Shown here in pieces: positions 12,228 through 30,960 of a DNA stretch of 64,000 bases. Both the position numbers and the translations under genes were made by a program. The notes beneath the pieces were generated by a model that saw only the letters and a list, made by a program, of their open reading frames with translations, ran no database searches and had not been told where the DNA came from. The stretch comes from a virus: IMG/VR virus record IMGVR_UViG_3300005842_000001, positions 8,806-72,805 of that record; one strand, 5' to 3'. Numbering within the stretch: the first letter of the stretch is position 1; every line of letters starts with the position of its first letter.

Positions 12228-12875
12228 ATGAGCGAAGAATCACAGACACTGATTCCACCAAGAGAAGATCGACCGAAGCGCAAGCCTTCAGTTGACAAGA
12301 TGGTGATTGAGTACCGCAGAATGTTGGTGGCTCAAAAGTATTTGCGCGGGCAGTCAATGGACAAGATTGCTCAAGAGATGCCCCCAGAGTTGGCTTGCTC
12401 AAGAAGTTCTGTTTACCGTGACTTACAAGCGCTTCGTGAGATATGGCGAAAAGAAGCCAACCTGCCTATTGCAGACATGCGAGCAAAAGAACTCGCCAAG
12501 ATCGATGAGCTTGAACGAACTGCATGGGAAGCGTATGAGATAAGCAAGGGCGACAAGATCGTGTCTCGATTCGGTACAGTGCTGCCAGCGACTACAGCAG
12601 GAAGCAAGCCATCAGTGACTGGCGCCCACACTCGGACGATCACAAAATCAACCGCTGGTAATCCGCGCTTTCTAGAAATGATAGAAAAGTGCATCAATCG
12701 TCGGTGTGAAATCTTAGGTCTCAAACGTCAAACGACTCTCGATCCTATGGCTGACATGCCCATACTTGGCATATCATTCATCGTCCGTAAGCCACAAGAG
12801 CCAAAGCAGATCGAAGCAACACAATTGGATTCAATGGAACCAAGCAATGACGGCGAGAATGAACCAACTGCCTGA
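12228..12875 (+). CDS. putative terminase small subunit (HTH)
   Basis: YLRGQSMDKIAQE...SRSSVYRDL helix-turn-helix; overlaps the large subunit start. Confidence 0.65.
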   Translation: MSEESQTLIPPREDRPKRKPSVDKMVIEYRRMLVAQKYLRGQSMDKIAQEMPPELACSRSSVYRDLQALREIWRKEANLPIADMRAKELAKIDELERTAWEAYEISKGDKIVSRFGTVLPATTAGSKPSVTGAHTRTITKSTAGNPRFLEMIEKCINRRCEILGLKRQTTLDPMADMPILGISFIVRKPQEPKQIEATQLDSMEPSNDGENEPTA

Positions 12876-14325
12876 GCCGCCATTCTGGAACCCGCTGGCA
12901 ACTCAGAACGAAAAAGACCCAACCGTAAACCCCGGCAAGTTTTCGTGGATGGGTTCTGATGGTCGTGTGTACTTTGATCTACATGAGGGGCAAGAGAAAG
13001 CTCTTGAGAGTGAAGCAAGATTCATTGCGATCATTGCTGGCACTCAGTCGGGTAAGACAGAAAGTGGACCGCCTTGGCTCTATAACGAAATAGCAAAGCG
13101 TGGCCCTGGCGATTACATCGTTGCATCACCTACCTATCCGTTGCTTCAGAAGAAAGCTCTCCCAGCGTTCATTGAGCTATTCGATACCAAGCTGAAGCTC
13201 GGTCGATACTTTCCAGGTTCAAAGCAGTTCAAGTTTTCCAAAGAAGGATCGAGACGAATCTTTGGACGCTATGTCGACGAAAAGACCATCGTGTTCTTCG
13301 GTCATGCTCAAGACCCAGAGAGCTTGGAGTCAGCGACAGCGAAGGCAGCGTGGCTTGATGAAGCGGGACAACGCAAGTTCAAGCTGGCGTCATGGGAAGC
13401 GTTGCAGCGACGTTTGGCGATGCACATAGGCCGGGCGTTCATCACCACGACGCCTTACGATCTTGGCTGGCTCAAGAAGCAAATCTATGACCGCTGGAAA
13501 GCTGGCGACAAAGATTATGAAGTGATCAACTTCCGTTCGACGATGAACCCGGCTTTCAGTCTGAGAGAATACAACCGGGCAATGAAGACACTGCCCCGGT
13601 GGAAGTTCGATCTGTTCTATAACGGCATATTTACCCGCCCAGCCGGTGCGATCTATGATTGCTTTGAAGAGAAAAAGCATACTTGTCCACGGTTCGCCAT
13701 CCCTGATCATTGGGAGCGATTGCTCGGAGTCGATTTCGGCGGCATCAATACTGCTGGCGTGTTCTTTGCCAAAGAGCCGAATACGGGGCGGCTGTTCGGT
13801 TATCGAGAGTACAACAAAAACTATTTCAACGGTGTCTTGCACGAGGGACTACCTCACACTGGCGGCACTTTGTCATGCAAGAAGCACGTTGAGAATCTGC
13901 TCACTGGTGAAGTGATGATACCTTATGCCGTGGGCGGGGCTAAGTCAGAAAATCAATGGCGTGAAGAGATGCGAAGCGCTGGGCTTCCGGTTCGTGAGCC
14001 TGATCAGAACGAAGTAGAAATCGGCATTGGCCGGGTGTATGGCGGCATCAAAGAGAACCTGGTGGTGTTCTTCGATGATCTGATTTACACGCTTGATGAG
14101 TTTTCCACTTACTCACGAGAGATGGACGATCAGGGAGAAGTCACCGAAGAGATTGAAGATAAAGAAACGTATCACCATCTTGACGCCTGTAGATATATAT
14201 TAGGCGACGAGTTCAGAGACATACTGACATGGAAGGATATGAAGACTGGCGAAGATCATCAAGAATCTGTAAATCAATACACAGCGCATCGTCAATCGGC
14301 CAGTGAAATCCTGAAGACTCTCTAA
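12859..14325 (+). CDS. terL: terminase large subunit
   Basis: Walker A AGTQSGKT, Walker B WLDEAG, ITTTP; nuclease motifs GVDFG and HHLDACRY. Confidence 0.9.
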   Translation: MNQLPEPPFWNPLATQNEKDPTVNPGKFSWMGSDGRVYFDLHEGQEKALESEARFIAIIAGTQSGKTESGPPWLYNEIAKRGPGDYIVASPTYPLLQKKALPAFIELFDTKLKLGRYFPGSKQFKFSKEGSRRIFGRYVDEKTIVFFGHAQDPESLESATAKAAWLDEAGQRKFKLASWEALQRRLAMHIGRAFITTTPYDLGWLKKQIYDRWKAGDKDYEVINFRSTMNPAFSLREYNRAMKTLPRWKFDLFYNGIFTRPAGAIYDCFEEKKHTCPRFAIPDHWERLLGVDFGGINTAGVFFAKEPNTGRLFGYREYNKNYFNGVLHEGLPHTGGTLSCKKHVENLLTGEVMIPYAVGGAKSENQWREEMRSAGLPVREPDQNEVEIGIGRVYGGIKENLVVFFDDLIYTLDEFSTYSREMDDQGEVTEEIEDKETYHHLDACRYILGDEFRDILTWKDMKTGEDHQESVNQYTAHRQSASEILKTL

Positions 14326-14338
14326 GTCAGGAGCAATC

Positions 14339-14671
14339 ATGCAAGTTGTCGTCCTGCTCGTCAAGGATCACATTCAGTACAAGTGTCCTGCTTGCGGCTG
14401 GCATGATCTGCCTGTGAAGGTGAACGTAAAAGAAAACAGATCATGGGAATGGAACGGCGATTTAGAAAAGCCGACGATCACTCCATCAGTGAGGCACTTT
14501 CACAACGGCATGCCAGCAGAAGGCATCAAGCCTTTTTGTTGCCATTACTACATCAGAAATGGCGTGTTTGAGTTCCTGCCTGATTGCACTCACGACAAGG
14601 CCGGGCAAACTATTCCAATGACACCGTACACAGATGCGGAAGTTAAACTTCATTCACTCGAAACGAAATAA
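14339..14671 (+). CDS. DUF6527-like Cys/His protein
   Basis: CPACGWH...WEWNGDLEKPTITPS...CHYYI.NG..EFLPDCTH. Confidence 0.7.
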   Translation: MQVVVLLVKDHIQYKCPACGWHDLPVKVNVKENRSWEWNGDLEKPTITPSVRHFHNGMPAEGIKPFCCHYYIRNGVFEFLPDCTHDKAGQTIPMTPYTDAEVKLHSLETK

Positions 14672-14680
14672 GGGACAGTC

Positions 14681-17600
14681 ATGAATCAATTACCAATGAA
14701 TCCTGGCAACGACATGACCGACGTTCGCATCAAGTCGGGACTATTCGGCGGCATGGGCGGTATTGGCCGACAGATGGGCCGGGTGATGTACCGCACCGGG
14801 CAGTTCCTCGGTGTCATGCCTTGGGAGACGCCGAGACGTTCACAGATCGGGGTCGATCCCATCGGTGAAGAGTTCATGCTCAATGAGGATCAGCAAGCTA
14901 AGGCCCGCTTGATGGGTCAGAAAATCTATCACGAGTTTGTTGCTGGTCGTTTCAGCTTCTTGTCCAACGACGATGGCAAGAGCAACGAAACGCCTCAGAT
15001 GCGTGAAGAATACTGGAAGTTTGCAGTCACAGAGCCAGCGCTTGACGCTGCTCTGTGGACAAAGATCACCGCAGTCATCGCCAATGAATTGATCATCAAG
15101 CCATCATCGAAGTCAGGCTTTGATCGATACATTGCCGATTGGGTGCATGACTGCATTATCAGATGCAAGGGCGGCTTGCGCAACATCGGTGAGCAGATTC
15201 TCTTTCATGGTCAAGTGTACGGCAATGTGTTATGTGAACCGAAATGGAAGCACGAGCATCGGCAAGTCCACTCAACGATGTTCCCTTATGGTTTCTGGAC
15301 GCTGAAGGATTTCGTTGCAAAGCCACCGGGCGATTACAAATTGGAAATCGATGGCTTCAGAAACATCACCGGCGTCTGGTCGGCAAAAACTGCTGAATGG
15401 TTCGATCCTACTTACTTCGTTTATTGGGCTCACAAGCCGATCTATGGCAACATGGGCGGCACGTCGGGCGTTCGCAGTGTCAGACGAGCTTGCACTCTTC
15501 TAAAGCTGGCCCACAACTATCGAGGCATCTACCTTGAGCAGTTCGGCTTGCCGATGATCAAGGCGACTTACCCCCAGAACGATGACGACTCTCAGCGCAT
15601 CGCAAGAGCAGCGATTCAACACGCTCGATCACTCGGCTACATCTTGATACCAGAAGGTGTTGACGTTGAGGCATTGACACTGGCACAGCGCGGCGAGTCT
15701 GACTATCAGGATGCCATTGACGATTACCGAAAAGAAATCTTCCTTGGGCAGACAGGATCGTACCTGTATGCGATGGAAGGAAGCGTAGGTCATGCTGCTG
15801 GCAATTCAGAGACTCACCGCAGTACGCTTGATCTGTGGGTTGGGTATCTCAGCAAGATTCTGGAAGAGATTCTCAATGATCAGATCATTCCCTGGCTGAT
15901 CACGCTAAATATATACAACGCTGATCCGCCACGAGCTATGATCGGCGGCGTCAACGATGAAGATTTGAAAGCATCACTTGAGGTTGACGATAAATTGATT
16001 AGCTGGGGTGTTGAGCTTGATGAAGATGAACTACGAGATCGCTACCACCGATCAGCGCCAAAGAATGGCAAGGGCATTGGCGGCATGAATCGCTTGATGC
16101 TTGGGATGAACAATGGCATGGGAGCAAACAATGTACAAGGCAACCCGTTCGCTGGGCAAGCCGCTTCATTCCCGTTGCAGAATCAGGGGCAAGCCGCGAA
16201 TAACAATACACCGCCGCAAAGAGATGATCAGACAGTTAAGTTCTCAGCAGATGACGAGGACTTTACACAGCAGCAAAACTATACTTGCGGAACGGCATCA
16301 CTCCGATTCGCCATGAACCATTTTGGTGTCACTCCGCCTGAAGAAAGTGTGCTGTCCCTATTACTTGGTACGACACCAGCACAAGGCACGAATGCAGCCT
16401 CAATCGTGAGGCTGGCAAAGCAGAATGGGCTAGAGGCTGAAGGCCAGTCCAACATGACAATGCTCGAAATGTCAGAGCGTCTGAAGGATGGGGCAGTCGT
16501 ACTGGCTCCCATTCAGAAGTTCGGGTCACCTGAAGAGAAAGCGAAGAATCAGACTGGTCACTGGATCGCTGTAACACGTCTTGATGGTTCAAGCGGTATG
16601 CTTGAATACTTCGATCCAGTTTTGGGCAGTGACAAGCCCTGCTGGGAGTCGTTGCAGACGTTCGCTGCCAACTGGCATGATCGAGATGGTGATGGGAAGA
16701 TGTTGCCCAGGTATGCGATCACGATCAGCGAACCTAAAAAAAAAATGACATTCAGCACCGATGATCTGCAACTTGGATACATCTCGATTCCGCTGCCTGA
16801 GTTCGCTGAAGCAATCCAGAAGGTGCAAAGCGCGATCGATCCTGCTGACTTGATCAAGACTGAGAATGATCATCATATCACGTTGCTTTATGGTTGTGGC
16901 GCTGACAGCTTCGATGACAGCGTGAAGCTCTGCGCTAGCATTGCACCAATCAAGATGACTTTTGGCGGCACATTCACACTGTCGCCAAAAGATGCGGACC
17001 ATGACGTTCTGGCGTTCAAAGTCTATGGCGATGCTCTTGAGAAAGCAAACTACAGTCTCGCCAGCGGGTTAGAAGTCAAGCAAGACTACGATACCTTCCA
17101 GCCCCACGTCAAAATAGGGCGGCTCAAACAAGGGGCAGGGTCAAAATATACTTCACCATCATTTGCGGGCTTCTCAGCATTGCTGGGCGATTCCAAGGTG
17201 GCTGAGTCTGCTCAGTTCAAGGTAAAGGGTGGTGAAGCGTTAAGCCTCCCTTTTGCCGCAGTGTCTGATTTACCAGTTCTGAAGTTCTCAGAAGAGCCAG
17301 CAAGCGATGAAGTTGCCAAGCCGGGTAAAGATGGCGACAAAGCAGATAAGCTGCTACAGAACGTCAAGGAAGACGGTACAGCGATCCTGGCTCGACTTTG
17401 CAAAATGGCATATCGCCGCATGCTTGATAATGGCGTTGGTGGCAGTCAGCTATTCACGATGCAAGAGAGGAACGAACTCACCGAAGCATTCTTGGGCTGT
17501 GTGATCAATGCCAATCTGCTTGGTCGATCATCCACCATCAGCAAGTTCCTGAGAGACCAAGATGAATCGAGAGTTGATCGATTCGCTGATGAAACGCCAT

Positions 17601-18988
17601 TCGATGCGTTTTCATCTGCCCTTGATCCTTTGCGCCCTGAGCTAGCGATTGATTATTTCAAAAATCTGTTCCCGATGATCGGCGTTGATCCAGTGGCGTA
17701 CATTCCGCAGATGAGGCGATATGCCTTCACGTTGGCGGTTGCAACCGAGACAACTCTTCTTGGTAAGGTTCACGATCTACTGACTGATGCACTACACGAA
17801 GGAACGCTTGACACTCAATTCAAGATCGATGATCTGCTAAAGAAGACTGGCGTGGCTCCTGAAAACCCGCAGTACAGTGAAATGGTTTTCAGGACGAACA
17901 TGATGGACGCCTACACGACTGGCACGACAGATCAGGCAAAAGACCCGACCATTGCCGAAGCGTACCCGGTGTGGCGATACGATGGCATCGACGACGAACG
18001 CGCTGGGAAAGATCATCGCCCCAAGTTCGGGAAGTATTATCCATCGTCAGCAGAGTTTGCTGATGTTCGTGGTGATCGTCCTTATAACTGTGTTCTCCCT
18101 GGGCAGATGACACAGGGAAGAATCAATGGGGCATTAAAAGCCCACTATTCTGGCGAAGCGGTCGAGATTTATAGTGACAGTGGTGATATTATTTCCCTGA
18201 CCGTCAACCATCCCGTATTGACCGATAGAGGCTTTATTCGTGCTGGCGAAGTGAAGGAAGGAGATTATCTTGTCAGCTATTCCGGGGAACATCAAATCCC
18301 TGTTCTTGGTGAAGACTATCAATACTTTCCAACCTTGATCGAAGATGTATTTGAGACGATTAGTGTAGTTAAAGGTAGGTCGGCTAGGGCTTCTGCCCCA
18401 GTTTCCCTTTTCAAGCTCTATGGCGATGAGTTGTTCCTTGAAAGCAAGATCGACGTTGTAGGCTCCTATCGGGAATTGCTGTTCAATGGTGTGCCCCATG
18501 ATTCTGAGCGTGTTCGCAACTCTATCCTCTCTGGGGCTACGGTGAAGCTGCATGGCATACCACGAAGCAGCACGCTTCAATTTAACAGCCATGCTGTCAG
18601 TCATCCCTCTTCTAGCGGCGTGGGCCTTAGCGACTTGCTTGGCTCTGATGCGTTTGCTCATCAAACTCCATTTAGTCTTTTCTGCTTCGGATCGGCCTCG
18701 CACCTTTATTCCCAATTTGACGAATTGCTTTCTAAGACAACTTCTGTCGATGTTCAGTTTGTCGGCAAGAGCCTTCATGGAGGCACCGGCAAGGTAGCGT
18801 TTAGCAAGGCGAGAAAGATTAGGAATTTCCATTACGATGGTCCTGTGTTTGATTGCTCAACTGATGTTGGATATTTTATAGTAAATAACATCTTCATTTC
18901 AAATTGCCGCTGCTGTCCTACGATGATCTACAAGACAACATGGCAACAGTTGCAGGATCAAGGTAAGAGCGTAGAGACAAGCTGGTAG
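14681..18988 (+). CDS. fusion: Mu gp29/DUF935-like portal + C39-like Cys peptidase + 2H phosphoesterase + MuF head morphogenesis domain with intein
   Basis: Portal to about aa 470 (EQFGLP, IFLGQT, ILNDQII); peptidase QQQNYTCG...GHW...YFDP; 2H motifs HITL and PHVK; MuF VFRTNMMDAY..G, WRYDGIDD.R..DH, PYN/CRC. Confidence 0.85.
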   Translation: MNQLPMNPGNDMTDVRIKSGLFGGMGGIGRQMGRVMYRTGQFLGVMPWETPRRSQIGVDPIGEEFMLNEDQQAKARLMGQKIYHEFVAGRFSFLSNDDGKSNETPQMREEYWKFAVTEPALDAALWTKITAVIANELIIKPSSKSGFDRYIADWVHDCIIRCKGGLRNIGEQILFHGQVYGNVLCEPKWKHEHRQVHSTMFPYGFWTLKDFVAKPPGDYKLEIDGFRNITGVWSAKTAEWFDPTYFVYWAHKPIYGNMGGTSGVRSVRRACTLLKLAHNYRGIYLEQFGLPMIKATYPQNDDDSQRIARAAIQHARSLGYILIPEGVDVEALTLAQRGESDYQDAIDDYRKEIFLGQTGSYLYAMEGSVGHAAGNSETHRSTLDLWVGYLSKILEEILNDQIIPWLITLNIYNADPPRAMIGGVNDEDLKASLEVDDKLISWGVELDEDELRDRYHRSAPKNGKGIGGMNRLMLGMNNGMGANNVQGNPFAGQAASFPLQNQGQAANNNTPPQRDDQTVKFSADDEDFTQQQNYTCGTASLRFAMNHFGVTPPEESVLSLLLGTTPAQGTNAASIVRLAKQNGLEAEGQSNMTMLEMSERLKDGAVVLAPIQKFGSPEEKAKNQTGHWIAVTRLDGSSGMLEYFDPVLGSDKPCWESLQTFAANWHDRDGDGKMLPRYAITISEPKKKMTFSTDDLQLGYISIPLPEFAEAIQKVQSAIDPADLIKTENDHHITLLYGCGADSFDDSVKLCASIAPIKMTFGGTFTLSPKDADHDVLAFKVYGDALEKANYSLASGLEVKQDYDTFQPHVKIGRLKQGAGSKYTSPSFAGFSALLGDSKVAESAQFKVKGGEALSLPFAAVSDLPVLKFSEEPASDEVAKPGKDGDKADKLLQNVKEDGTAILARLCKMAYRRMLDNGVGGSQLFTMQERNELTEAFLGCVINANLLGRSSTISKFLRDQDESRVDRFADETPFDAFSSALDPLRPELAIDYFKNLFPMIGVDPVAYIPQMRRYAFTLAVATETTLLGKVHDLLTDALHEGTLDTQFKIDDLLKKTGVAPENPQYSEMVFRTNMMDAYTTGTTDQAKDPTIAEAYPVWRYDGIDDERAGKDHRPKFGKYYPSSAEFADVRGDRPYNCVLPGQMTQGRINGALKAHYSGEAVEIYSDSGDIISLTVNHPVLTDRGFIRAGEVKEGDYLVSYSGEHQIPVLGEDYQYFPTLIEDVFETISVVKGRSARASAPVSLFKLYGDELFLESKIDVVGSYRELLFNGVPHDSERVRNSILSGATVKLHGIPRSSTLQFNSHAVSHPSSSGVGLSDLLGSDAFAHQTPFSLFCFGSASHLYSQFDELLSKTTSVDVQFVGKSLHGGTGKVAFSKARKIRNFHYDGPVFDCSTDVGYFIVNNIFISNCRCCPTMIYKTTWQQLQDQGKSVETSW
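18089..18904 (+). mobile_element. intein (272 aa) inserted in the MuF PYN|CRC motif
   Basis: Starts CVLPG; block B LTVNHPVLT; block F/G YDGPVFD...YFIVNNIFISN; Cys at +1. Confidence 0.85.
18134..18832 (-). CDS. HTH + Vsr/DUF559-like PD-(D/E)xK endonuclease nested antisense within the intein
   Basis: RYLAGASMKALADKLNIDRSCLRK HTH; SPRE..V...L...G....QFPIGAYNVDLAF....IAIELE...W...R.KYIFDQGWKVLIV. Confidence 0.8.
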   Translation of the reverse strand: MEIPNLSRLAKRYLAGASMKALADKLNIDRSCLRKQFVKLGIKVRGRSEAEKTKWSLMSKRIRAKQVAKAHAARRGMTDSMAVKLKRAASWYAMQLHRSPREDRVANTLRIMGHTIEQQFPIGAYNVDLAFKEQLIAIELEKGNWGRSPSRPTFNYTNRLKYIFDQGWKVLIVFTKNRDLMFPGIADKIISFLHFASTNKASIGQYGMVDGQGNNITTVTINLDRFARIVGF

Positions 18989-19083
18989 CTGGTCATTGCC
19001 CAGAGTGTTCCTACTATGAAGACAACGCAACATGGCCCGGAGTTGCTGAAACGTGTCGAGGTAAGTTGGTAGCTTGGAGGCAA

Positions 19084-19437
19084 ATGATGCAAGCCTTACC
19101 GCCCCCGGACAATGATACATTCACCACTCTCTTGAGGGCATTAACTGCTGGTGTGCTGGGCATGATAGGTGCGAGCTTCTCTTCCTTAGATCGAGCAGTG
19201 AAGGGGAAAGAAATGTTCTGGCACCTGGGCTTGTCACTGTTTCTCTCTGGACTTACTTTTTGCACGTTGGTATCTATCTGGCCAGGTATTTATTGGATCG
19301 TGTGGCTTCTTCCTTCGTTCGTGATCGGCTTCTGTGTCTACGGCATTGCAGTTGCATTGAAAAAAAACAGCAAGTCTGCCGAAGACTTCGACGTTACTAA
19401 AGTCATCAAAAAGAAAACAGGCATAGAAGGAGATTAG
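19084..19437 (+). CDS. membrane protein (holin-like, tentative)
   Basis: Three hydrophobic segments, basic C-tail; GGAGG upstream. Confidence 0.55.
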   Translation: MMQALPPPDNDTFTTLLRALTAGVLGMIGASFSSLDRAVKGKEMFWHLGLSLFLSGLTFCTLVSIWPGIYWIVWLLPSFVIGFCVYGIAVALKKNSKSAEDFDVTKVIKKKTGIEGD

Positions 19438-19440
19438 GTC

Positions 19441-19821
19441 ATGTTCGTGATTCTCTGGGTGCTTGACAACATTGGAACCGCGCTCACAGTTGCAGCGGCT
19501 TTAGTAATCTTTGCGGTCGTTTGCGTACCGATGAGTCACCGACCTATAATTGAAAGAGTGTTCGGATTGTTCATCGGAATTTCGACGATGGGATCAGCAC
19601 TTGATCGTTTTGCGCAGGTCATGGCTCAATATGACGTAGATGGTAGCGTTCGTTGCGTGGCTATGCTCATCTTCGATATTTCAAAAATGGGCATCGTGAT
19701 TACAGGCGGCATGTTGCTCTATCGGTATATCGTGATGAAGAGAATGAACTGCGCTAGTGCTGATCGTTATGTGAAAAAATTGTCTGATCAAAAGACTCCA
19801 TTTTTTGCGGTGTCTCATTAA
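19441..19821 (+). CDS. membrane protein
   Basis: Three hydrophobic segments. Confidence 0.6.
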   Translation: MFVILWVLDNIGTALTVAAALVIFAVVCVPMSHRPIIERVFGLFIGISTMGSALDRFAQVMAQYDVDGSVRCVAMLIFDISKMGIVITGGMLLYRYIVMKRMNCASADRYVKKLSDQKTPFFAVSH

Positions 19822-19857: not shown

Positions 19858-19877
19858 ATTATGAAAGGTAGAAGTTG

Positions 19878-22800
19878 ATGCGAACTATTACGCAGTCAAT
19901 TGTGCGCAGGAGAGCGCAAAGTGCGATTCTAGGTCAACGTGGCTCCCTCACGCCGCCATTCTATGCCGGTGCTGTTTCAATCGCACCGCCACTGTCGTCA
20001 AGGTATCTTGCCTACCACGAAGGCTCCCTGGGCGTTCTCGATGGTAGCGGCAACCCGCAAACTACTGCGTTCGGCATCGTCGGCACATGGCAGGACCAGA
20101 GCGTCAACGGCAACCATCGCGTTCAGTCCAACAATGCTCTCCGCCCATTTGCCCGTACAGCCAGCACGCCTGGACTCAAAGTCGTACCAGCAGTCTACCC
20201 GTTCACAGATAACGCTAGAGCGCTTCCTTGTTCGACAATCATCATCGACAAACGAAACACGTCGTTCTATGCCATCGTCGACACCGATTATCAAGTTGCC
20301 TTCAATAATGCAGAATCAAGGGTACTTTGGTCAAGCAGTGCTGGCACGTTGCAATATGATTTAGCATCCTTGAGCTTTGGAAGGCTTCAATGGGTAGATG
20401 CCGGGGGAACGCACGATACTGGACTACGACTCTCGGCAGGATGGAATCTCGTTGGGGTGCAACTACTTGCAACAGCGGTCGTGGTCTGGGTCAACGATCA
20501 AAGCGTTTCTTATGCTGCTCTCAGTGCCGGCACGGTCACAGGCGACATACTGTTTAACAATGCTGGCGGGGTATCAAGTTGGAAGGGAAGTTGCCCGGTG
20601 GCTGTTCTGCACACTCCCGCCATTACTGCTGGCGAAAAGTCTTCCTTGATTGATCCGTGGGCCAGAAGCCGAAGAGTGAATTACACGACATCAACCACCC
20701 CGCTCTTGATCGGTTTCGGCAACTCGCTGGCTTCTGGATTATCCGCAAAAGATTGGCAGGGCTACCTCTGGCAGTGCGATTACGGCGACGCGCTTTACCA
20801 CAATGTTGCATTTGCCGGCAAGCAGTGGACTGATGCGAACGATCCACTGAATCTAAATGGCGTCAATCTTAATGACATTAACAGGCTTGGCATCTGTCTC
20901 GGTGATCTTGGGACAAATGATATATATTTAGGAGTCCCGGCAGCCACAGCGTTCGCCAATCGTTCTACTGTGATTGCCAGATTGCGTGCTGCTGGTCTGT
21001 TTTTCATTGAGCTATTACTCACCCCTTCTTTGGGGATTGTGAATGCAGGGCATGAGGCAGAGAGACTTGCCTATAATGCGTTGGTGCTGGCGGAAACTGA
21101 TAGGGTTCACAGTAACTATAAGATCGGCATTCCAGCTAATCTTGCTGACTATAGCAACCTTGATTATTACACTGTTGATGGTGTGCATTACACCAGGCTG
21201 GGGCATGCTCAGTATCCGCCTGAGTTCCAGTCTGCATTGAATTCAGTGCTTGCGTTGAGAAGCCAGGTCAGTACGCTGCAAGCTAAGTATTATTTCAATG
21301 GCGATTATTCTGACAGCACCATTTACACCAGAGACTTGACAGTCATCACAGGAAGTCCGTCTTTCAGTGCTGGGATTGGCGGACAACAGCGACTCACTCT
21401 CGTCAAGGCATCCAGTCAAAGCGTCTCCCACATTGTTGCCAGTAGTGGAAACAATCCGGGTGTCTTTGACTGGTATCCAATGACGATTGCGTTTTGGTTG
21501 ACTACGACCAATTCAACAAGTGGTACGATCATAGCCAACAGTGACAATGCCGGCGTTGGCTTCAATTGCTATCTCGATACGCATGGCCAGATTCATTTCG
21601 ACTTGGTTCGGCAAGCAGCGGCAGGCAGTGTCGCATCAGGGCCAACGTCATTTGCAGTTAATGACGGCGTGACACGGTTTGTTGCTATTGTCATTGATTC
21701 AGCCGGAGTGAGGATTTATGTCTCTCCTACCTCCAACCCTGCCCTTGCAGGACTGGAAACATCGACGGCATGGACTGGCACTCCTGGGAAGTTTGTGCCG
21801 TCCAGCCGGGCATTGCGTATAGGCGTGGATCAAGCCGGAACTACTTTCACCGACATGTCGATGCAGACGTGTTACTTCTTTGCGGAATCTAAGTCACTGG
21901 TAGACCTGCAAGCACTTCAGGCGATCCCCGGAACAGCAGCGCCAGAACCACCAGTTTTGACCACTGGTGTTTACACGACAGGAAGTATGCCGGTCACTGC
22001 ACTCCCACCGCTGAACCACAACAGTACAATTACGCTCTACAAGTTCTACATAGCTTTGCACAGCGGGGGAGCGCATCCTGATGATTTCACCCTTGCTGGC
22101 ACTTCTGTCACACCCAATTTCACATACACAGTTACTGACGGTCAGGACTACCACATCAGATGTACGGCAGTAAATGCAATTGGCGAAAGTGCCGATAGCA
22201 ATGTTGTGACGTTTACCGCTACCGCTGTTTCGTCAGTGGCCGGAGCTACAGTGATATTCGATGCCTGGGTTGGCCCTTACACTGACGATGGAGTAACGCT
22301 CTGCACTGCCAGCGGCGACAGGATTAAGCAACTCACGAATCAAGCCGTGGCTAACTACGGATCGCAGCCGACCGCCAACCTCCGGGGCGTCTACAAGATG
22401 TACCGGCAGAACGGGCGGCCAGCGATTCAGTTCAGCGGTGGCCAGTTCCTGAAGTTCTTGAACGCGATCAACACCTGGCCTTGCACGGTTGCTATCGCCG
22501 GGTATTGGCGGGACTTTACCGGCGTCAATGGTCGCATCTTGGGACTAGGCGGCCCGCAGAGCTTGTTCAGTACCGGCACCAACTGGACAGCCTACGCCAT
22601 ACCAGGCGGGTTTACTCAAGACCTGGGGGCCAGCGCATCAGTTCCTAAAGTAGCTGTCATCCGCTTCGATCATTCAGCGGCCTGGAAAGTTTGTTTCAAT
22701 GGTGTGCTTGGCGGCAACCTCCAATTTAACGCTGCGGCATCCGGCAATCTTGCTATCGGTGCTCACGGTGACGATGGCGGGGAATGGGCTGATGTTGAGT

Positions 22801-22892
22801 TTTATCGCTTCAAATTCTGGCCCAGCATTCTCAATGATGCCAATGTGCTGCTGGCCGCTGCCGAAATGAACAGCCTGCTGGCGATTTACTAA
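19878..22892 (+). CDS. multidomain virion-surface protein: LamG/ConA-like + SGNH esterase + LamG + FN3 + LamG-like
   Basis: GFGNSLASG, LGTND, DGVHY (SGNH); FN3-like YHIRCTAVNAIGESADSN; N- and C-terminal ends resemble each other. Confidence 0.7.
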   Translation: MRTITQSIVRRRAQSAILGQRGSLTPPFYAGAVSIAPPLSSRYLAYHEGSLGVLDGSGNPQTTAFGIVGTWQDQSVNGNHRVQSNNALRPFARTASTPGLKVVPAVYPFTDNARALPCSTIIIDKRNTSFYAIVDTDYQVAFNNAESRVLWSSSAGTLQYDLASLSFGRLQWVDAGGTHDTGLRLSAGWNLVGVQLLATAVVVWVNDQSVSYAALSAGTVTGDILFNNAGGVSSWKGSCPVAVLHTPAITAGEKSSLIDPWARSRRVNYTTSTTPLLIGFGNSLASGLSAKDWQGYLWQCDYGDALYHNVAFAGKQWTDANDPLNLNGVNLNDINRLGICLGDLGTNDIYLGVPAATAFANRSTVIARLRAAGLFFIELLLTPSLGIVNAGHEAERLAYNALVLAETDRVHSNYKIGIPANLADYSNLDYYTVDGVHYTRLGHAQYPPEFQSALNSVLALRSQVSTLQAKYYFNGDYSDSTIYTRDLTVITGSPSFSAGIGGQQRLTLVKASSQSVSHIVASSGNNPGVFDWYPMTIAFWLTTTNSTSGTIIANSDNAGVGFNCYLDTHGQIHFDLVRQAAAGSVASGPTSFAVNDGVTRFVAIVIDSAGVRIYVSPTSNPALAGLETSTAWTGTPGKFVPSSRALRIGVDQAGTTFTDMSMQTCYFFAESKSLVDLQALQAIPGTAAPEPPVLTTGVYTTGSMPVTALPPLNHNSTITLYKFYIALHSGGAHPDDFTLAGTSVTPNFTYTVTDGQDYHIRCTAVNAIGESADSNVVTFTATAVSSVAGATVIFDAWVGPYTDDGVTLCTASGDRIKQLTNQAVANYGSQPTANLRGVYKMYRQNGRPAIQFSGGQFLKFLNAINTWPCTVAIAGYWRDFTGVNGRILGLGGPQSLFSTGTNWTAYAIPGGFTQDLGASASVPKVAVIRFDHSAAWKVCFNGVLGGNLQFNAAASGNLAIGAHGDDGGEWADVEFYRFKFWPSILNDANVLLAAAEMNSLLAIY

Positions 22893-22901
22893 GGAACCGT
22901 C

Positions 22902-25208
22902 ATGAAAACATTACTTTCCTTGCTGCTGATTCTTTTCAGTAGCACCGTTGCAGCCCAATCCCCCATCGCCTTATCGACGAGCGATCCCAAGTTTGCGCCA
23001 CACTCAGAGATCATACCAAAACCGATAGCAGCGCTGGCGTTTGGCACTAGAGGCCCAGGCTATGCTAACGGTTCACGTCCTGCTGGCCGATTCGATGTTG
23101 CGTATGCTCTCGTCGATGAACAAAGCAAGCTGTCGCCACTGTCAAAGCCAGTAACAATTGCATCATCGTCATCCGACTGGGATATTGTGGTGTCGACGCC
23201 GGTGCTTGATCTGTGGACACGCGCGATCGGAACGATGTGGGTATACAGAGCAACAGGAACAGCCGAATGGAAGTCTCTCGGTTGCAATCGTAACTGTGTA
23301 GTGCCATGGGCAGCGACTCGACCATTTATGCCGCTTGTAGGTTGGGATCATTCGTTGGGTGGCTTTCAACTCTTCTCAACACAAAACTTCTGGCCGACAT
23401 TCAGTGATGTTTACTGGAAACAAACATCGACGCTGGCACAACCACCACCGCCATCGGTTCGTTTGCTTTCATGCCCGAACATTGCTTTAGAAGCTGCCTA
23501 TTCGTGGGCATGCAATGAAGGAGAGACGCCGTTATCAGACGTAACAAGTATCGCTGCTGTTCCTGGCAATCCTGCAACGATTCATGCACCATGTCAGTTG
23601 TACCGCAACATTATACCACCACAAGGCGCTCTCGGTTCTTACGTCTATTTGAGAGTGCCGGGTGGTCAGTGGCATCGTCAAAAATCCCATCAATCAGCAG
23701 ACAGCTATCTATGGCCGATTGACTCAAATCAATTACCGATCAATGAATATGTTGAAACAGGCGTCAAGCCCAGCGGCATCGTCGGCAAGTCATGGCTTAG
23801 TTCAATCCATCTGGCGATGCGTGATTGGCGACGAGACGTGATCATTGACACCGATCAGACTATTTGCTGCCCGGTAATTTCAGCTTATGATGGGCCAAGT
23901 TGGGTATATGACCCACGCAATCAGCAGATCGCTTTTGGTGTGAATGCTTTTGCTTACCCCAACGAAGGATGGACTCTATCAATTGATGGTGTCACAAGCG
24001 GCTACCTTCGCCCTACGTCCGGCTGGCAAACTTGGCAGCAAGTCGCTGATACTGCATTTGGCCCCGGTAATGTTGAGCTTCGATATGGTAGCGGCTTTGG
24101 TGGCGTGGTGATCGTTTTCACTGGCAAGTATGCAGCGACAGACATGACGAATCGCATCAAGACTGATTTCACGAAACTTTATCAGATCAACAACAACGAT
24201 GCTAGCAAGCCGCTAATGGATACATCAGTACCGCCAAAGCCGATTCCTTTTGCAGTTCCTATAGTCGATTCCTATACTCAGTCAGCGCGTAGTTGGTACA
24301 TGTCAGCAGGTGGTCAGAAGTTCAATCGAACGATTGCAACAGGAAATGGCGGTGGGTGGGTTCTCAGTGACACAGCGACGACGCCAGAAGGCAAGTCGAG
24401 CTATCCTGGTGACTGGCCTTTGTGGGTAGAGAACAGCCAGCGAACTCGACTGATCGGTTGCAAGATGACACGGAACCAGTCCAATTGTGGAATAGCTTTT
24501 ATAGATCATTCAGGCGGCGGTGCTTTTTCATTCACAGCGAAAGATTGTGCTTGCTCTGCTGGCGTAGGAAATAATGGCAACACTTATGGAGTTCGATGTA
24601 CCTGGACAAGCAGAGGGCCAGCTTGGAACAACCATTCAGCGTCTGAGCCATATTTTGAAAACTGTTCTTTCCAAGCGAAACACTGCATAGTCTGTGAAGG
24701 TGGCCAGTCAGTCAACTGGTTATTCAACACTACCTACGGCGCTGGTGATGGCACCATTGAATCTTCAATCGTCACACAAGCCAACTCAGGGGCTATGTCT
24801 TTCAAAGGCAGAACAAACGTCGATAACTCACGCACCATCGGCGCTATGACATGGGCAGGAAAGGTTGACATTGAAGGCATTTGGCTCGATCAGGGTGTAC
24901 CGTGTTGGTTTACGATCACCGGCAACACGTTCCCAGCCATGTCGATCAATGGTACCAAGATCAATCAGTGGCGTGATTGGCTACATGTCATCGAAGCGCC
25001 GACAGGCAGCATAGGCTATCCGGTCAATTTGACGTTGAGCAATCTCGATTCTCAGTTCAATGGCCAGCCGGTAACAATGCTTGCATCGACTCGTGACATG
25101 CTTACCGTCACTCAGAAAGACCCGGTGAACTTGCTTGCAAATCTTGTGAAGACGGGACTTGTCACGATTCCAGTACCTGTTAAAAAGCAAATGCTACGAA
25201 GCAGATGA
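22902..25208 (+). CDS. large protein with predicted signal peptide and possible beta-helix C-terminal half
   Basis: MKTLLSLLLILFSSTVAAQ; FENCSF-type strands. Confidence 0.6.
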   Translation: MKTLLSLLLILFSSTVAAQSPIALSTSDPKFAPHSEIIPKPIAALAFGTRGPGYANGSRPAGRFDVAYALVDEQSKLSPLSKPVTIASSSSDWDIVVSTPVLDLWTRAIGTMWVYRATGTAEWKSLGCNRNCVVPWAATRPFMPLVGWDHSLGGFQLFSTQNFWPTFSDVYWKQTSTLAQPPPPSVRLLSCPNIALEAAYSWACNEGETPLSDVTSIAAVPGNPATIHAPCQLYRNIIPPQGALGSYVYLRVPGGQWHRQKSHQSADSYLWPIDSNQLPINEYVETGVKPSGIVGKSWLSSIHLAMRDWRRDVIIDTDQTICCPVISAYDGPSWVYDPRNQQIAFGVNAFAYPNEGWTLSIDGVTSGYLRPTSGWQTWQQVADTAFGPGNVELRYGSGFGGVVIVFTGKYAATDMTNRIKTDFTKLYQINNNDASKPLMDTSVPPKPIPFAVPIVDSYTQSARSWYMSAGGQKFNRTIATGNGGGWVLSDTATTPEGKSSYPGDWPLWVENSQRTRLIGCKMTRNQSNCGIAFIDHSGGGAFSFTAKDCACSAGVGNNGNTYGVRCTWTSRGPAWNNHSASEPYFENCSFQAKHCIVCEGGQSVNWLFNTTYGAGDGTIESSIVTQANSGAMSFKGRTNVDNSRTIGAMTWAGKVDIEGIWLDQGVPCWFTITGNTFPAMSINGTKINQWRDWLHVIEAPTGSIGYPVNLTLSNLDSQFNGQPVTMLASTRDMLTVTQKDPVNLLANLVKTGLVTIPVPVKKQMLRSR

Positions 25209-27475: not shown

Positions 27476-29023
27476 ATGCCAGCGGTTTTGGACAACGAAA
27501 AAATAAAAAATCAGGAAATTGTCAAGCCCTCAAAGATGTACCGGGTTGAGCGTGTTCGTCTATTTGAATCAGGCAACCACAAGGGCATCGTCTACGAAAA
27601 AAAAGACATTGATGATGCTGTTAATAATTTCAACGCATTCAGCACACCAGAAGTACACAAGCTGGAAGTTCCAATTGTTCTCGGACACGAGGAAGCGCAA
27701 GTCCTACTTGATATGACTGGCCACCCTGCGGCGGGCTGGATCGAATCAGTTTGGGCCGAATTAGAGGGCATTGAAGAGCCTTTCATCGACGACAATGGCA
27801 ATGTGAAATGGCGTCAACGTGAAGCCTATTTTCTGTACGGGAACTTTTACAAAGTCCCTGAAGATGTAGCACAGTGGATCGTGGATGGAGCATATAGATA
27901 TTTATCTTGCGAGTTCAGCAAACGAGAGAAGCCACCCGCTGGCGTCCCGGCGATTGGCCCGATGCTGCTGCGCGTTGCGATTCTTGGTGCTACACAGCCT
28001 CACGTCAAAAGTTTAGGACCACTGCCCTCCCCGATTCCTGATTACTCTGTAAACTTGTTTTCAGACAGTGATTCAGCAGCCTGTGACATTGTAACTTTGC
28101 TACTCCCCATCAAGGGAGCAACTTGCTTCAGTGAGGATAAAGCCATGAACGATGCGATGATGAACGCTCTTGCTGCTCAAGGTATCCCTCCTGAAGCCTG
28201 TAAAGTTTTGGCTTCTATCGATCCCACCAAGTATGCTTCAGTCGGCAAGGCTTTCTCTGAAGCTGGCAATCCTCAACCGCCTCAACCCGGTGGTCAGGCT
28301 GGCTCTTTTGATCGTGCTGCTACGATTGAAAAGCTCAGCGCATTGCCCAACGCTGATCGTGACGCCATCGGCAAGATGAGTGATGATGAACTCAAGTCGA
28401 TGTACAGCAAGTCCAAGTTTGCTGATGGCGGTGGCAACAATGCTCCTGGCAACAATGACGTTGCCAATCCTGGCACCGGTGGCAATGGCACTCAGAAGCC
28501 ATCTTTTGCCGCTGATGACAAGAAGGACGATCAGAAGTTTTCAGTGATCAACCAAAAGACCAAGGAACTCGAAAGCGAAATGATCGAGTTCCGGAAGTGG
28601 CGTCAAAGCACTGAGGGCAAGTTGAACGCTGAAGCGAAACAACGTGCTGATGCCGAATACGCTGCAACGTGCAAAGAGATTGATAAGTTTTGCACCGATC
28701 AAGTTGCTGCTTTCCGCATTACTGCTCGTGAGGCTCCGCTTCACGCTAATGCAATGAAGGAGATGGCAAAACTGCCAACCTTCAAGACGGATGTGGTCAA
28801 GTTCAGCGACGACAAGGGCAAAGAAGTTACTGGTAATCCTGTTGAGGCGTACAAGGCGACAATTCTTGCCCGTAGTGTGATGAAGTTTTCTCAAGATCGA
28901 ATTGTCTCACCTGCCCCAGGTGGCAAGGAACTCACCCGCGCTCAACGCATGATCGCCGGTTCACGAATCGGCAAAGATATTGCCGAGATGAACCGTAAGA
29001 AGGCAGCGACTGCTACCAAGTAA
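27476..29023 (+). CDS. Mu-like prohead protease/scaffold
   Basis: PIVLGH, PAAGWI, GAYRYLSCEF, LLRVAILGATQPHVK; helical C-terminal scaffold region. Confidence 0.85.
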   Translation: MPAVLDNEKIKNQEIVKPSKMYRVERVRLFESGNHKGIVYEKKDIDDAVNNFNAFSTPEVHKLEVPIVLGHEEAQVLLDMTGHPAAGWIESVWAELEGIEEPFIDDNGNVKWRQREAYFLYGNFYKVPEDVAQWIVDGAYRYLSCEFSKREKPPAGVPAIGPMLLRVAILGATQPHVKSLGPLPSPIPDYSVNLFSDSDSAACDIVTLLLPIKGATCFSEDKAMNDAMMNALAAQGIPPEACKVLASIDPTKYASVGKAFSEAGNPQPPQPGGQAGSFDRAATIEKLSALPNADRDAIGKMSDDELKSMYSKSKFADGGGNNAPGNNDVANPGTGGNGTQKPSFAADDKKDDQKFSVINQKTKELESEMIEFRKWRQSTEGKLNAEAKQRADAEYAATCKEIDKFCTDQVAAFRITAREAPLHANAMKEMAKLPTFKTDVVKFSDDKGKEVTGNPVEAYKATILARSVMKFSQDRIVSPAPGGKELTRAQRMIAGSRIGKDIAEMNRKKAATATK

Positions 29024-29907: not shown

Positions 29908-30960
29908 ATGGCATACGACATTCCCGATCTGGTAGCGTTGCAGGAAGTCGAGCAAGAAATCCTGCCCGTTCTCACGATGAATGATCCTTTGTTTGATCTG
30001 TTCCCTATCGACAGCGAAAATGCTTCGATGATCGAATGGGAACAGAAGGACAACTTTGCTGGCCTGATGGCTGTCCGTGGCATCAATGGCAACCCTGGCC
30101 GAGTCCAGAAAGTGGGTTCAAAGACCTACTCAATGGAACCCGGCTACTACGGTGGCTTCACTCCGCTTGACGAGAAGGAACTCACCAAGCGAAGATCGCT
30201 CGGCACGTTTGATGAGCCGATCAACATTGATGATCTGATCACAGAAGCTCTTGAGCATCTGATGACTCAGCAGATCAACCGACAGCGGAAGATCATCGCT
30301 GATCTGATCACCACTGGCACGTTCAGCGTCACGAACGAATTGACTGGCTCAATCGATCACACTGACAGCTTCACGCTGCCAGCTTCGACCGCTTCGATTC
30401 CTTGGACGACTGTTGCAACTGCAACTCCTTTGCTCAACATTCGTGCTGCCATTGCTACCCGCATTGGTTACAGCTACGATTTTGGCAAAGAAGCCATCAT
30501 GTTGATGAATCAGAACACCTACAACAATTTCATCAACAACGCCAACAGCGCTGATCTTGCTGGCAAGCGGGCTTCGTATGGTCAGACTTATCAGAGTGTC
30601 GGTAATCTCAACGACTTGCTGGCGGCTGACAACCTGCCTCAGATTCTGGTCTATAACGAATCTTACTTGGCTACCCCAAGCTCAACGCCTACGCTGTTGA
30701 TTCCTGATGGTAAGGTTGTGATCTGCGGCAAGCGAAAGACTGGGCGCTCTCTCGGTAACTTCACAGTGACGAGGAACGCCAATCACCCTGACATGGCGGC
30801 TGCACCTTACTTGTGGATCGTTGACCCGTTCCAAGCTGCCTCTGGCAACATCCTTCCTTCGTCTGGGTCGATTCCTCGAACCATCGAAGTTCACCGGGGC
30901 TTCAATGGTGGCGTCAAGTTGCCCTTCCCTGGTGGCATCTATGTCTTGACCGCCTACTAA
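29908..30960 (+). CDS. major capsid protein (lambda gpE-like)
   Basis: 350 aa; DLFP, IEWE, W.TVATATPL..I, LIPDGKV; gene position. Confidence 0.85.
   Translation: MAYDIPDLVALQEVEQEILPVLTMNDPLFDLFPIDSENASMIEWEQKDNFAGLMAVRGINGNPGRVQKVGSKTYSMEPGYYGGFTPLDEKELTKRRSLGTFDEPINIDDLITEALEHLMTQQINRQRKIIADLITTGTFSVTNELTGSIDHTDSFTLPASTASIPWTTVATATPLLNIRAAIATRIGYSYDFGKEAIMLMNQNTYNNFINNANSADLAGKRASYGQTYQSVGNLNDLLAADNLPQILVYNESYLATPSSTPTLLIPDGKVVICGKRKTGRSLGNFTVTRNANHPDMAAAPYLWIVDPFQAASGNILPSSGSIPRTIEVHRGFNGGVKLPFPGGIYVLTAY

Follow-up and report, generated by a model that had tools for sequence, protein, structure and literature searches.

How does a single gene come to encode a phage portal, two enzymes and a MuF head protein, and what might such a gene be for? 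The question is raised by an open reading frame (ORF) in a 64,000-nucleotide stretch of a viral genome, IMG/VR record IMGVR_UViG_3300005842_000001. This stretch ("the window" hereafter) comprises bases 8806–72805 of the 72,805-bp record, which has direct terminal repeats and is rated 100% complete. The ORF (P0001; window positions 14681–18988, plus strand) encodes 1435 amino acids (aa) that were assigned to a Mu-type portal, a linker, a C39-like cysteine peptidase, a 2H phosphoesterase and a MuF domain interrupted by an intein. On balance, we consider it probable that P0001 is a conserved "polyvalent" phage head protein whose enzymatic cargo is packaged in the virion, cut loose and injected, with the packaging, cleavage, injection and substrates all predicted. 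The initial annotation, made from the sequence alone, had proposed the one long ORF, an N/Q/G-rich linker and the identities of the four domains. All of these held up in the present analysis (the domains by Pfam/PHROG matches, an AlphaFold2 model, Foldseek and profile evidence), and the limits given for the two middle domains were right to within a few codons. As an inventory the annotation was incomplete, in that the 272-residue intein in MuF (residues 1137–1408) was missed.

The reality of the fusion was examined first at the level of the ORF. No stop codon interrupts its 1435 codons, and an independent IMG/VR contig (L002) carries an intact 1435-aa ORF with 97% identity to that of the window. 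Copies open at the 3' end are present on a further IMG/VR contig (L003; 935 aa) and on a metagenome contig (L006; 958 aa, 43% identity), the latter being the one short locus found in a scan of metagenome contigs. A word-indexed protein search returned 21 proteins (E ≤ 0.001), of which six (P0002–P0007; 43–68% identity), derived from differing sources, have the order portal, C39-like peptidase, 2H, MuF. Thirteen rhizosphere sequencing runs carry the ORF in part or whole, and two of these runs may be its source; no RNA run was among the runs listed as carrying it. Contigs of runs X3, X4 and X5 (the last two with parts of the ORF lacking contig cover) span the portal/linker, C39/2H and 2H/MuF-spacer junctions, with no indels listed. 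The ratios of nonsynonymous to synonymous polymorphism (pN/pS) calculated against L002 were 0.03 for the portal, 0.38 for the linker, 0.05 for C39, 0.17 for 2H, 0.04 for the spacer and 0.03 for the N-terminal part of MuF; the portal, C39 and MuF parts are thus under purifying selection. The window and L002 differ at 272 nucleotides, all of which lie before position 17663, and the remaining ca. 3.96 kb of L002 is identical to the window. The boundary at 17662/17663 is therefore a mosaic one, arising either from recent recombination between strains or from chimeric assembly of co-occurring strains. Because independent contigs and six relatives share the fusion and contigs from other samples bridge its junctions, the fusion is genuine and is not an assembly artefact, the outcome that the initial annotation had identified as fatal to its proposal. 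A search for unfused close portals (shorter proteins matching residues 1–465) gave no match at E ≤ 0.001 among 8000 word-sharing candidates; as the search was word-limited, this is weak evidence. With the whole protein as a single query, a search of the PDB sequences returned 0 matches.

The N-terminal portion of the protein (residues 1–465; 14681–16075, plus strand) is a Mu-type portal (PF06074, E = 1e-38; phrog_113, E = 1.2e-29). The Portal_Mu match covers residues 118–455 and profile positions 10–334 of 336, and it scored 134 bits against a cut-off of 23.9. The portal is followed by a flexible linker (residues 466–525; 16076–16255, plus strand) in which N, Q and G make up 42% of residues, compared to 17% in the whole protein. 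The linker had a predicted local distance difference test (pLDDT) score of 54–55 in the model described below, and it ends in the first of several junction motifs, F521-S-A-D (16241–16252). Double-glycine cleavage sites were also considered; GG was seen by eye in the linkers of 5 of 7 relatives, but the positions do not align and the context is G-rich, and these sites were not used.

The C39-like cysteine peptidase occupies residues 526–690 (16256–16750, plus strand), with C536 (16286–16288), H627 (16559–16561) and D645 (16613–16615) as the catalytic candidates. When scanned alone, this segment passed the Pfam cut-offs for PF03412 (26.9 versus 22), PF13529 (26.7 versus 24) and PF11814 (27.3 versus 25); when scanned within the whole protein, the scores were just under the cut-off (PF03412, 21.0; PF13529, 21.4). 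An AlphaFold2 model of residues 505–875 was obtained from a 41-sequence alignment. It had a mean pLDDT of 88.6 and featured two confident domains, with low confidence in the N-terminal linker, in a junction block (181–190 of the model, pLDDT 58) and at the C-terminal end. Foldseek comparison of the first domain to the PDB retrieved the ComA peptidase domain (3k8u/5xe9, template-modeling score normalized by target 0.83), LahT150, PCAT1, PeiR and phytochelatin synthase. Similarly, a family profile compared to PDB sequences matched PeiR (E = 4.8e-15) and ComA (1.2e-10), as well as LahT150 and PCAT1. C536 (in T-C-G), H627 (in G-H-W) and D645 (in D-P) align with the catalytic Cys, His and Asp of ComA (in C-G, H-Y and D-P, respectively), and two alignments (41 and 56 sequences) show all three to be invariant or nearly invariant. 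The domain thus has a papain-like fold with a Cys/His/Asp triad. It is not of the C39 exporter type, as the Pfam scan detected no ABC transporter domain in the polyprotein.

An exhaustive HMMER search with residues 505–875 found 1807 representatives at E ≤ 0.001, nearly all by way of the C39 part. Pfam was used to scan 56 of the top 62 relatives (six proteins longer than 1500 aa were left out). Peptidase_C39_2 was present in 54 of the 56, Phage_Mu_F in 13, a portal of any kind in 13, 2_5_RNA_ligase2 in 9 and Acb1 in 4. The portals belonged to three families (Phage_portal, 6; Phage_portal_2, 4; Portal_Mu, 3), and the other enzymes encountered were ADP-ribosyltransferase (2) and InPase, NUDIX and SET (1 each). 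Local hidden Markov models (HMMs) were applied to the 147 listed matches outside the close family; C39 was detected in 141, and 2H was also present in 20 of these 141. The arrangement of the two enzymes varied: C39-MuF (P0025), C39-MuF-intein (P0027), 2H-C39 (P0026) and C39-2H (P0070) were all observed. This pattern of occurrence is consistent with a peptidase that acts as a hub for head-anchored cargo or releases it. In a separate observation, the 2883-aa protein P0022 was found to hold 2H, sigma-70 regions 2 and 4, C39, MuF and HNH in one chain.

The second confident domain of the model is the 2H phosphoesterase (residues 691–865; 16751–17275, plus strand), which opens with the second junction motif, F691-S-T-D (16751–16762). 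Its Foldseek matches were drCPDase (5h7e, score by target 0.68), Usb1, TT0787, LigT, phage Acb1 and rotavirus VP3. Phage 2H proteins, including Acb1 models, were among the matches in a BFVD fold search. Judged by the modeled fold and by the relatives, membership in the 2H superfamily is clear, and the clade has the LigT/2'-5' RNA ligase and Acb1 families as near neighbors. The PF13563 cut-off of 27 was passed by L002 (31.5), P0003 (32.0) and P0004 (30.5), compared to 21.3 for the window; the L002 domain also passed the LigT_PEase cut-off. The initial annotation had drawn a comparison to Acb1, the phage enzyme that degrades cyclic nucleotides of the cyclic-oligonucleotide-based antiphage signaling system (CBASS). 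That comparison survives in part. On one side, the family profile matched Acb1 of Burkholderia phage BCSR5 (9q2g) with E = 4.5e-5, along with YjcG (6.6e-4) and a second Acb1 (7t26, E = 0.075). On the other, the Acb1 Pfam family (PF23474, cut-off 27 bits) was not reached by the window (12.3), L002 (20.4) or P0004 (17.4), such that profile scores do not establish Acb1 membership. Moreover, the window copy does not have two H-x-T/S motifs. The first catalytic motif, H732-I-T734 (16874–16882), is typical, and the second, H809-V-K811 (17105–17113), is atypical; codon 811 is AAA in the window and ACG (Thr) in L002 and L003. Because H-x-K replaces H-x-T in the second motif, the predicted activity of the window copy is doubtful and may have been lost or altered. 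In the relatives, the 2H domain probably hydrolyzes nucleotide second messengers or 2',3'-cyclic or 2'-5' RNA ends, as predicted from these kinships.

The remainder of the chain is MuF. A spacer and the MuF N-extein occupy residues 866–1136 (17276–18088, plus strand) and include the third junction motif, F869-S-E-E (17285–17296), and a fourth copy, F968-A-D-E (17582–17593). Residues 945–1121 matched phrog_220 ("minor head protein and DNA pilot", E = 4e-17). Phage_Mu_F (PF04233) scored 22.3–25.4 bits in the window against a cut-off of 29.6, compared to 31.3 in P0003; the low scores in the window result from the interruption of the domain by the intein. This class-1 intein has 272 residues (1137–1408; 18089–18904, plus strand), starting with Cys1 (C1137), continuing through a block B motif (T-V-N-H) and terminating in S-N (N1408), after which comes the nucleophilic +1 residue, C1409. 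The C-extein (residues 1409–1435, C-R-C-C-P-T-M..., and the stop codon; 18905–18988, plus strand) aligns with the C-terminus of the intein-free relatives P0002 and P0004–P0007. In the alignment, those five proteins have an uninterrupted R-P-x-N-C-R-C-S-P, and in the window N1136 and C1409 are separated by 272 additional residues. The conserved C-terminal N-C-R-C of MuF is therefore represented as N1136, intein, C1409-R-C, and the intein is predicted to have to splice out in order to restore it. One copy of this intein family is present in the window.

The strongest evidence for the intein comes from a rhizosphere contig of run X3 (depth 12). On this contig, position 18072 is joined to 18926 via 37 other letters, for a net loss of 816 nucleotides, i.e. 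272 codons. Hand translation of the 37 letters in frame gave A-R-V-F-N-C-R-C-A-P-S-L, in which the motif is intact. The contig is an intein-free allele in a diverged co-occurring strain; the element thus sits in a conserved host motif that also exists without it, as is expected of an intein. The same family was identified in seven other proteins and at two MuF insertion sites. The N|CRC site is occupied in P0008, P0011, P0012, P0013 and P0020, whose MuF domains are linked to three portal families or to none. At the other site, N-P-Q-Y|C-E-M-V, the intein is present in P0003 and P0010, and intein-free proteins have S, G or A in place of the +1 Cys. In Cronobacter phage ES2 (JF314845.1; L005, 1772–3544), the 591-aa "head morphogenesis protein" carries the same intein family, unannotated (N|C-Y-L-P...A-S-N|C-K-C). 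Every row listed in a Foldseek search with the intein model was an intein or Hint domain, with a best E of only 3.8e-3, and no homing endonuclease family was detected in the intein at E ≤ 5. Homing was considered on the strength of the 100% identity of the intein and C-extein between the window and L002, but the identity starts at 17663 and continues through the downstream genes to where L002 ends, a span of at least 3.96 kb; it reflects the mosaic described above and is not intein-specific. One relative with the same intein, P0008 (2051 aa), consists of a portal, a G/P-rich linker, MuF and then ca. 940 residues, and lacks both C39 and 2H in the interval from portal to MuF. The position of the cargo accordingly differs among relatives.

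The boundaries between the domains were inspected for possible processing sites. The pattern F-[S/A]-x-acidic was noticed at domain boundaries in the alignment, after which it was fixed as F[SA][ADEST][DE] and used in shuffle tests. In the polyprotein, it occurs at residues 521, 691, 869 and 968, the first three of which lie in low-confidence linkers of the model; the four copies compare to 0.44 expected (p = 0.0012, post hoc). The fixed pattern was then applied to the putative prohead protease-scaffold (P0169, 515 aa; 27476–29023, plus strand; phrog_976, E = 5.5e-22), which has a G/N/P-rich middle. Language-model features and predicted structure liken its N-terminal domain to the Mu gpI and P2 gpO proteases (PF10123 Mu-like_Pro and PF05929 Phage_GPO). 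P0169 has three copies compared to 0.18 expected (p = 6.5e-4). The ORF directly upstream of it has one (0.05 expected, p = 0.05), and 61 other ORFs of the window together have five (3.1 expected). Among the relatives of the polyprotein, P0002 has three copies (0.37 expected, p = 0.01) and P0003 has two. No relatives of P0169 were found in IMG/VR. When P0169 was aligned with two non-identical homologues (66% and 40% identity), F195-S196, C217-F-S-E220, F344, F443-S444 and F471-S472 were invariant, and some of these invariant F-S/A sites lie in otherwise variable low-complexity stretches. From these sequence patterns, the F-[S/A]-acidic motifs are tentatively put forward as candidate processing sites common to the polyprotein and a self-processing protease/scaffold, a proposal with the balance of probability somewhat against it.

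The favored mode of action would be as follows. The C-terminus of a portal points into the capsid. Proteins of the MuF/gp7 type associate with the portal and exit along with the DNA, and head components, the portal among them, are processed by gpI/gpO-type prohead proteases. P0001 would assemble into the portal vertex, thereby placing its C-terminal cargo within the prohead at twelve copies each. The intein would splice, restoring the MuF motif, and the flexible junctions would be cut at their F-[S/A]-acidic motifs. The likeliest cutter would be the Mu gpI-like prohead protease, whose scaffold half has the same conserved motifs; the embedded C39-like peptidase would be the alternative. The freed peptidase, phosphoesterase and MuF would exit with the DNA and act at the onset of infection, before phage gene expression. 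A more elaborate version can be formulated, in which C39-like peptidase and 2H constitute a conserved two-enzyme counter-defence module between portal and MuF, present at twelve copies per virion, released by the Mu gpI-type protease at F-[S/A]-acidic sites and co-injected. The peptidase would attack protein parts (e.g. conjugated or primed ones) of a nucleotide-signaling defence, 2H would destroy the signal, and maturation would need the MuF-specific intein family. Taken with all of its particulars, we regard this version as a doubtful one.

Several observations weigh against the reading of P0001 as a carrier of injected cargo, and they are taken here together with the alternatives that they favor. 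Regarding the motif, the pattern was defined after the polyprotein had been viewed, and the polyprotein's own p-value is accordingly inflated. The major capsid protein has no copy (0.07 expected, p = 1.0). P0004–P0007 have one strict copy each, with the looser F-[S/A] kept at aligned junctions. As a general signature of C39 proteins the strict motif was rejected; it occurs 31 times (24.3 expected) in the 147 listed matches (141 of them C39-like) and is not enriched. The long ORF itself could have been an assembly or chimera artefact or a read-through pseudogene, given that the record is a metagenome assembly with a mosaic boundary at 17662 relative to L002. With the same ORF on L002, L003 and L006 and in six more distant protein clusters from other sources, junctions bridged without indels by contigs from other samples, and strong purifying selection, we attach almost no probability to this explanation. 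The HINT domain might be one that cleaves without splicing, i.e. an autoproteolytic pre-toxin-HINT or bacterial-intein-like domain that trims MuF. Consistent with this notion, the penultimate residue is Ser, not His, in all eight aligned members of the family, and there is a weak PT-HINT Pfam match (E = 0.0031). The Intein_splicing match (PF14890, residues 1147–1406, E = 5.6e-7) scored 29.9 bits, below the cut-off of 35.8. The intein model has a mean pLDDT of 61.8, with only the N- and C-terminal splicing parts confident and residues 128–223 below 50. Further, some MuF proteins have toxins after the same HINT (e.g. P0020, which has an ADP-ribosyltransferase-like C-terminus). Set against these points are the insertion exactly in N|CRC, the 27-residue C-extein that completes the MuF C-terminus of intein-free homologues, the presence of Cys1, T-x-x-H, the terminal Asn and the +1 Cys, the natural allele that lacks exactly 272 codons and has the motif intact, and the second site, where the same logic places a +1 Cys instead of S, G or A. 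Cleavage without splicing is hence judged very unlikely.

The two other alternatives accept the protein as it stands and assign its middle domains to different tasks. The C39-like domain could be an effector and not a processing enzyme: either a virion-delivered peptidoglycan or isopeptide hydrolase that aids DNA entry, or a protease that acts on host (defence) proteins after injection, with the junctions cut by the prohead protease alone or left uncut. The best PDB sequence match of the clade is PeiR, a cell-wall (pseudomurein) endoisopeptidase that ranks ahead of ComA, and the BFVD fold matches include Lysin A, endolysin, lysozyme-annotated and tape-measure proteins; together, these matches may leave room for a cell-wall or effector role. 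In addition, the Pfam C70 family (the AvrRpt2 effector protease) matches 36 of the 56 scanned relatives. Of the 147 listed representative matches, 39 are shorter than 300 aa; the five stand-alone relatives that were inspected have acidic N-termini and no obvious signal peptide. The domain nevertheless sits on anchors of the head interior (portal and MuF), no tail family was among the 24 families listed, and its partners (2H, ADP-ribosyltransferase, InPase, NUDIX, SET) are as varied as would be expected for a hub or releasing domain. We rate the effector explanation as a lesser but appreciable possibility. Finally, the middle domains might serve head assembly alone, with the peptidase active in prohead maturation, 2H a decaying passenger, and only the DNA and perhaps MuF delivered. 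Portal and MuF are assembly proteins, and the phage has a dedicated maturation module. Further, the 2H domain of the window falls under the Pfam cut-offs and shows the weakest constraint among the folded domains (pN/pS 0.17), and its broken second motif is the sole exception in a local HMM alignment (35 matches) in which H-x-T is found in 33 of 34 aligned domains. By the same count, however, the relatives keep both H-x-T motifs; a pN/pS of 0.17 is not neutral; and 2H accompanies C39-like domains in 20 of 141 proteins in differing orders, which argues for a selected activity. An assembly-only role is thus considered unlikely, and the reading of P0001 as a polyvalent head protein with delivered cargo is retained.

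The surroundings of the gene are those of a head module in what is a soil phage. The large terminase subunit (12766–14325, plus strand; phrog_2, E = 7e-29; PF03237) is followed by a DUF6527/phrog_3362 gene (14339–14671), which holds the same place between terminase and portal fusion in L002 and L003, and then by the polyprotein ORF; the Portal_Mu domain is thus encoded within the packaging module. The listed start of the large terminase lies ca. 110 nucleotides inside a 215-aa ORF at 12228–12875 (phrog_645, with a weak helix-turn-helix match), which may encode the small terminase; alternatively, the large-terminase start may be mis-set. Downstream, the two small ORFs at 19066–19821 had no family matches. 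The portal fusion and the prohead protease are further separated by two large ORFs. The product of the first (19875–22892, 1005 aa) has weak GDSL-lipase and Laminin_G_3 matches without a clear family, and that of the second (22902–25208, 768 aa) has no family match. Both are odd content for a head module; they may encode additional virion cargo, or else fibres. Downstream of the prohead protease/scaffold comes a Phage_cap_E-type major capsid protein (29908–30960), and the neck and tail genes follow it. Because the terminase lies upstream and the prohead protease, capsid, neck and tail genes lie downstream, the polyprotein ORF occupies the usual place of separate portal and MuF genes; in Cronobacter phage ES2, for example, the portal is followed by a separate head morphogenesis gene. 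Naming of a host was attempted and abandoned: the sole genome-contig match was a 1.7-kb contig of a Limnoglobus metagenome-assembled genome with 29% identity to the portal, which was too weak.

If the favored reading holds, P0001 offers a clean case, found in nature, of cargo fastened to the portal vertex in defined stoichiometry and with built-in release sites, and a counter-defence enzyme would enter with the DNA ahead of any phage gene expression. The analysis also adds to the picture of polyvalent proteins a C39-like clade that recurs with portal and MuF across three portal families, and an intein family that is specific to two conserved MuF motifs and has been overlooked in the annotation of at least one cultured phage, Cronobacter phage ES2. 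The junction motif common to polyprotein and prohead protease provides a directly testable hypothesis of cleavage. The T811K difference constitutes a natural pair for enzyme assays, with the L002 copy predicted to be active and that of the window inactive.

How, then, does the polyprotein compare to known systems? In the literature searched, nothing relevant was found on the fusion of portal and MuF-like proteins or on C39 with a portal, and no description of MuF inteins was found. Like Acb1 (PF23474; 9q2g, 7t26), the 2H domain is a phage-encoded 2H fold, and it is linked to that family by the BCSR5 profile match. It differs in that its better Pfam families are PF13563 and LigT_PEase and in that the window copy lacks the second H-x-T. 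To our knowledge, known Acb1 proteins are small free proteins and not portal fusions. The peptidase shares a papain-like fold and the aligned Cys/His/Asp with ComA, LahT and PCAT1 (C39 domains of ABC exporters) and with the C71-type PeiR, which also shares N-Y-T-C at the catalytic Cys. Unlike these proteins, the polyprotein domain has no ABC transporter, leader-peptide substrate or cell-wall-binding repeats, and it is embedded in a head protein. Inteins occur in phage structural and packaging genes (terminase, portal). The MuF intein resembles those of terminase and portal in being a HINT splicing domain that interrupts a strongly conserved motif in a late, essential protein and is sporadic among relatives. 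It departs from them in its host protein (MuF), its two sites (N|CRC and NPQY|C), its C-terminal S-N instead of H-N and the lack of a recognized homing endonuclease domain. With Mu gpI and P2 gpO, the likeness resides in the N-terminal domain of P0169, which matches the Mu-like_Pro and Phage_GPO clusters and would be a plausible cutter of the portal fusion; the F-[S/A]-acidic motif as a cleavage site is proposed here only.

Closer parallels are found among proteins that use head components to carry enzymes. In the MuF polymorphic toxins (Jamet et al. 2017, PMC5576092; Zhang et al. 2012, PMC3482391), as in P0001, MuF is the head-packaging handle for enzymatic cargo. As depicted in the available portions of those papers, a variable toxin lies C-terminal to MuF and immunity genes are present, whereas here the cargo is N-terminal, nothing comes after MuF and the portal is in the same chain. 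P0001 is not such a toxin: the chain ends 27 residues past the intein, within MuF, and the ORFs at 19066–19821 have no family matches. The accessible text of Zhang et al. describes papain-like Tox-PL1 peptidases fused to MuF and a separate Tox-PL-C39 toxin domain; going by that text, Tox-PL1 has an N-C motif, and the polyprotein domain has the C39-type Q...T-C-G. The corresponding text of Jamet et al. mentions neither C39 nor inteins. A precedent for virion-borne counter-defence is offered by a 2025 preprint (10.1101/2025.07.23.666291), the consulted part of which reports that an ejected virion protein can inhibit CBASS.

The nearest relatives in concept are the polyvalent proteins of Iyer, Burroughs, Anand, de Souza and Aravind (2017, J Bacteriol, PMC5512222). 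The initial annotation had proposed that fusion to the portal would package counter-defence enzymes at a fixed copy number, ready for injection. That stays a prediction, and the idea is not new, being contained already in the main text of that paper: fusions of 2H with MuF or a portal are depicted (its Fig. 5B), 2H is predicted to act as an RNase or to degrade defence nucleotides, and embedded peptidases are proposed to release domains. The peptidases there belong to four superfamilies (zincin-like, assemblin-like, DD and LonC). The terms "C39", "papain" and "intein" occur 0 times in the main text, and the supplementary architecture catalogue may list C39-like or portal-cargo-MuF architectures. 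P0001 belongs with the polyvalent proteins as far as that text characterizes them: it combines at least two disparate catalytic domains with virion-packaging domains in one chain adjoining the terminase, and, as in their case, unrelated enzymatic domains in a single polypeptide are tied to MuF or portal. It is set apart from them by cargo sandwiched between portal and MuF in one chain, by a C39-like peptidase and by a MuF that carries an intein. The general concept, in which virion cargo (2H directed against defence nucleotides among it) is joined to portal or MuF, was thus published in 2017, and P0001 represents a refinement of a class already described. Its novel elements are the sandwich arrangement, the pairing with a C39-like peptidase, the intein family of MuF and the motif at the junctions.

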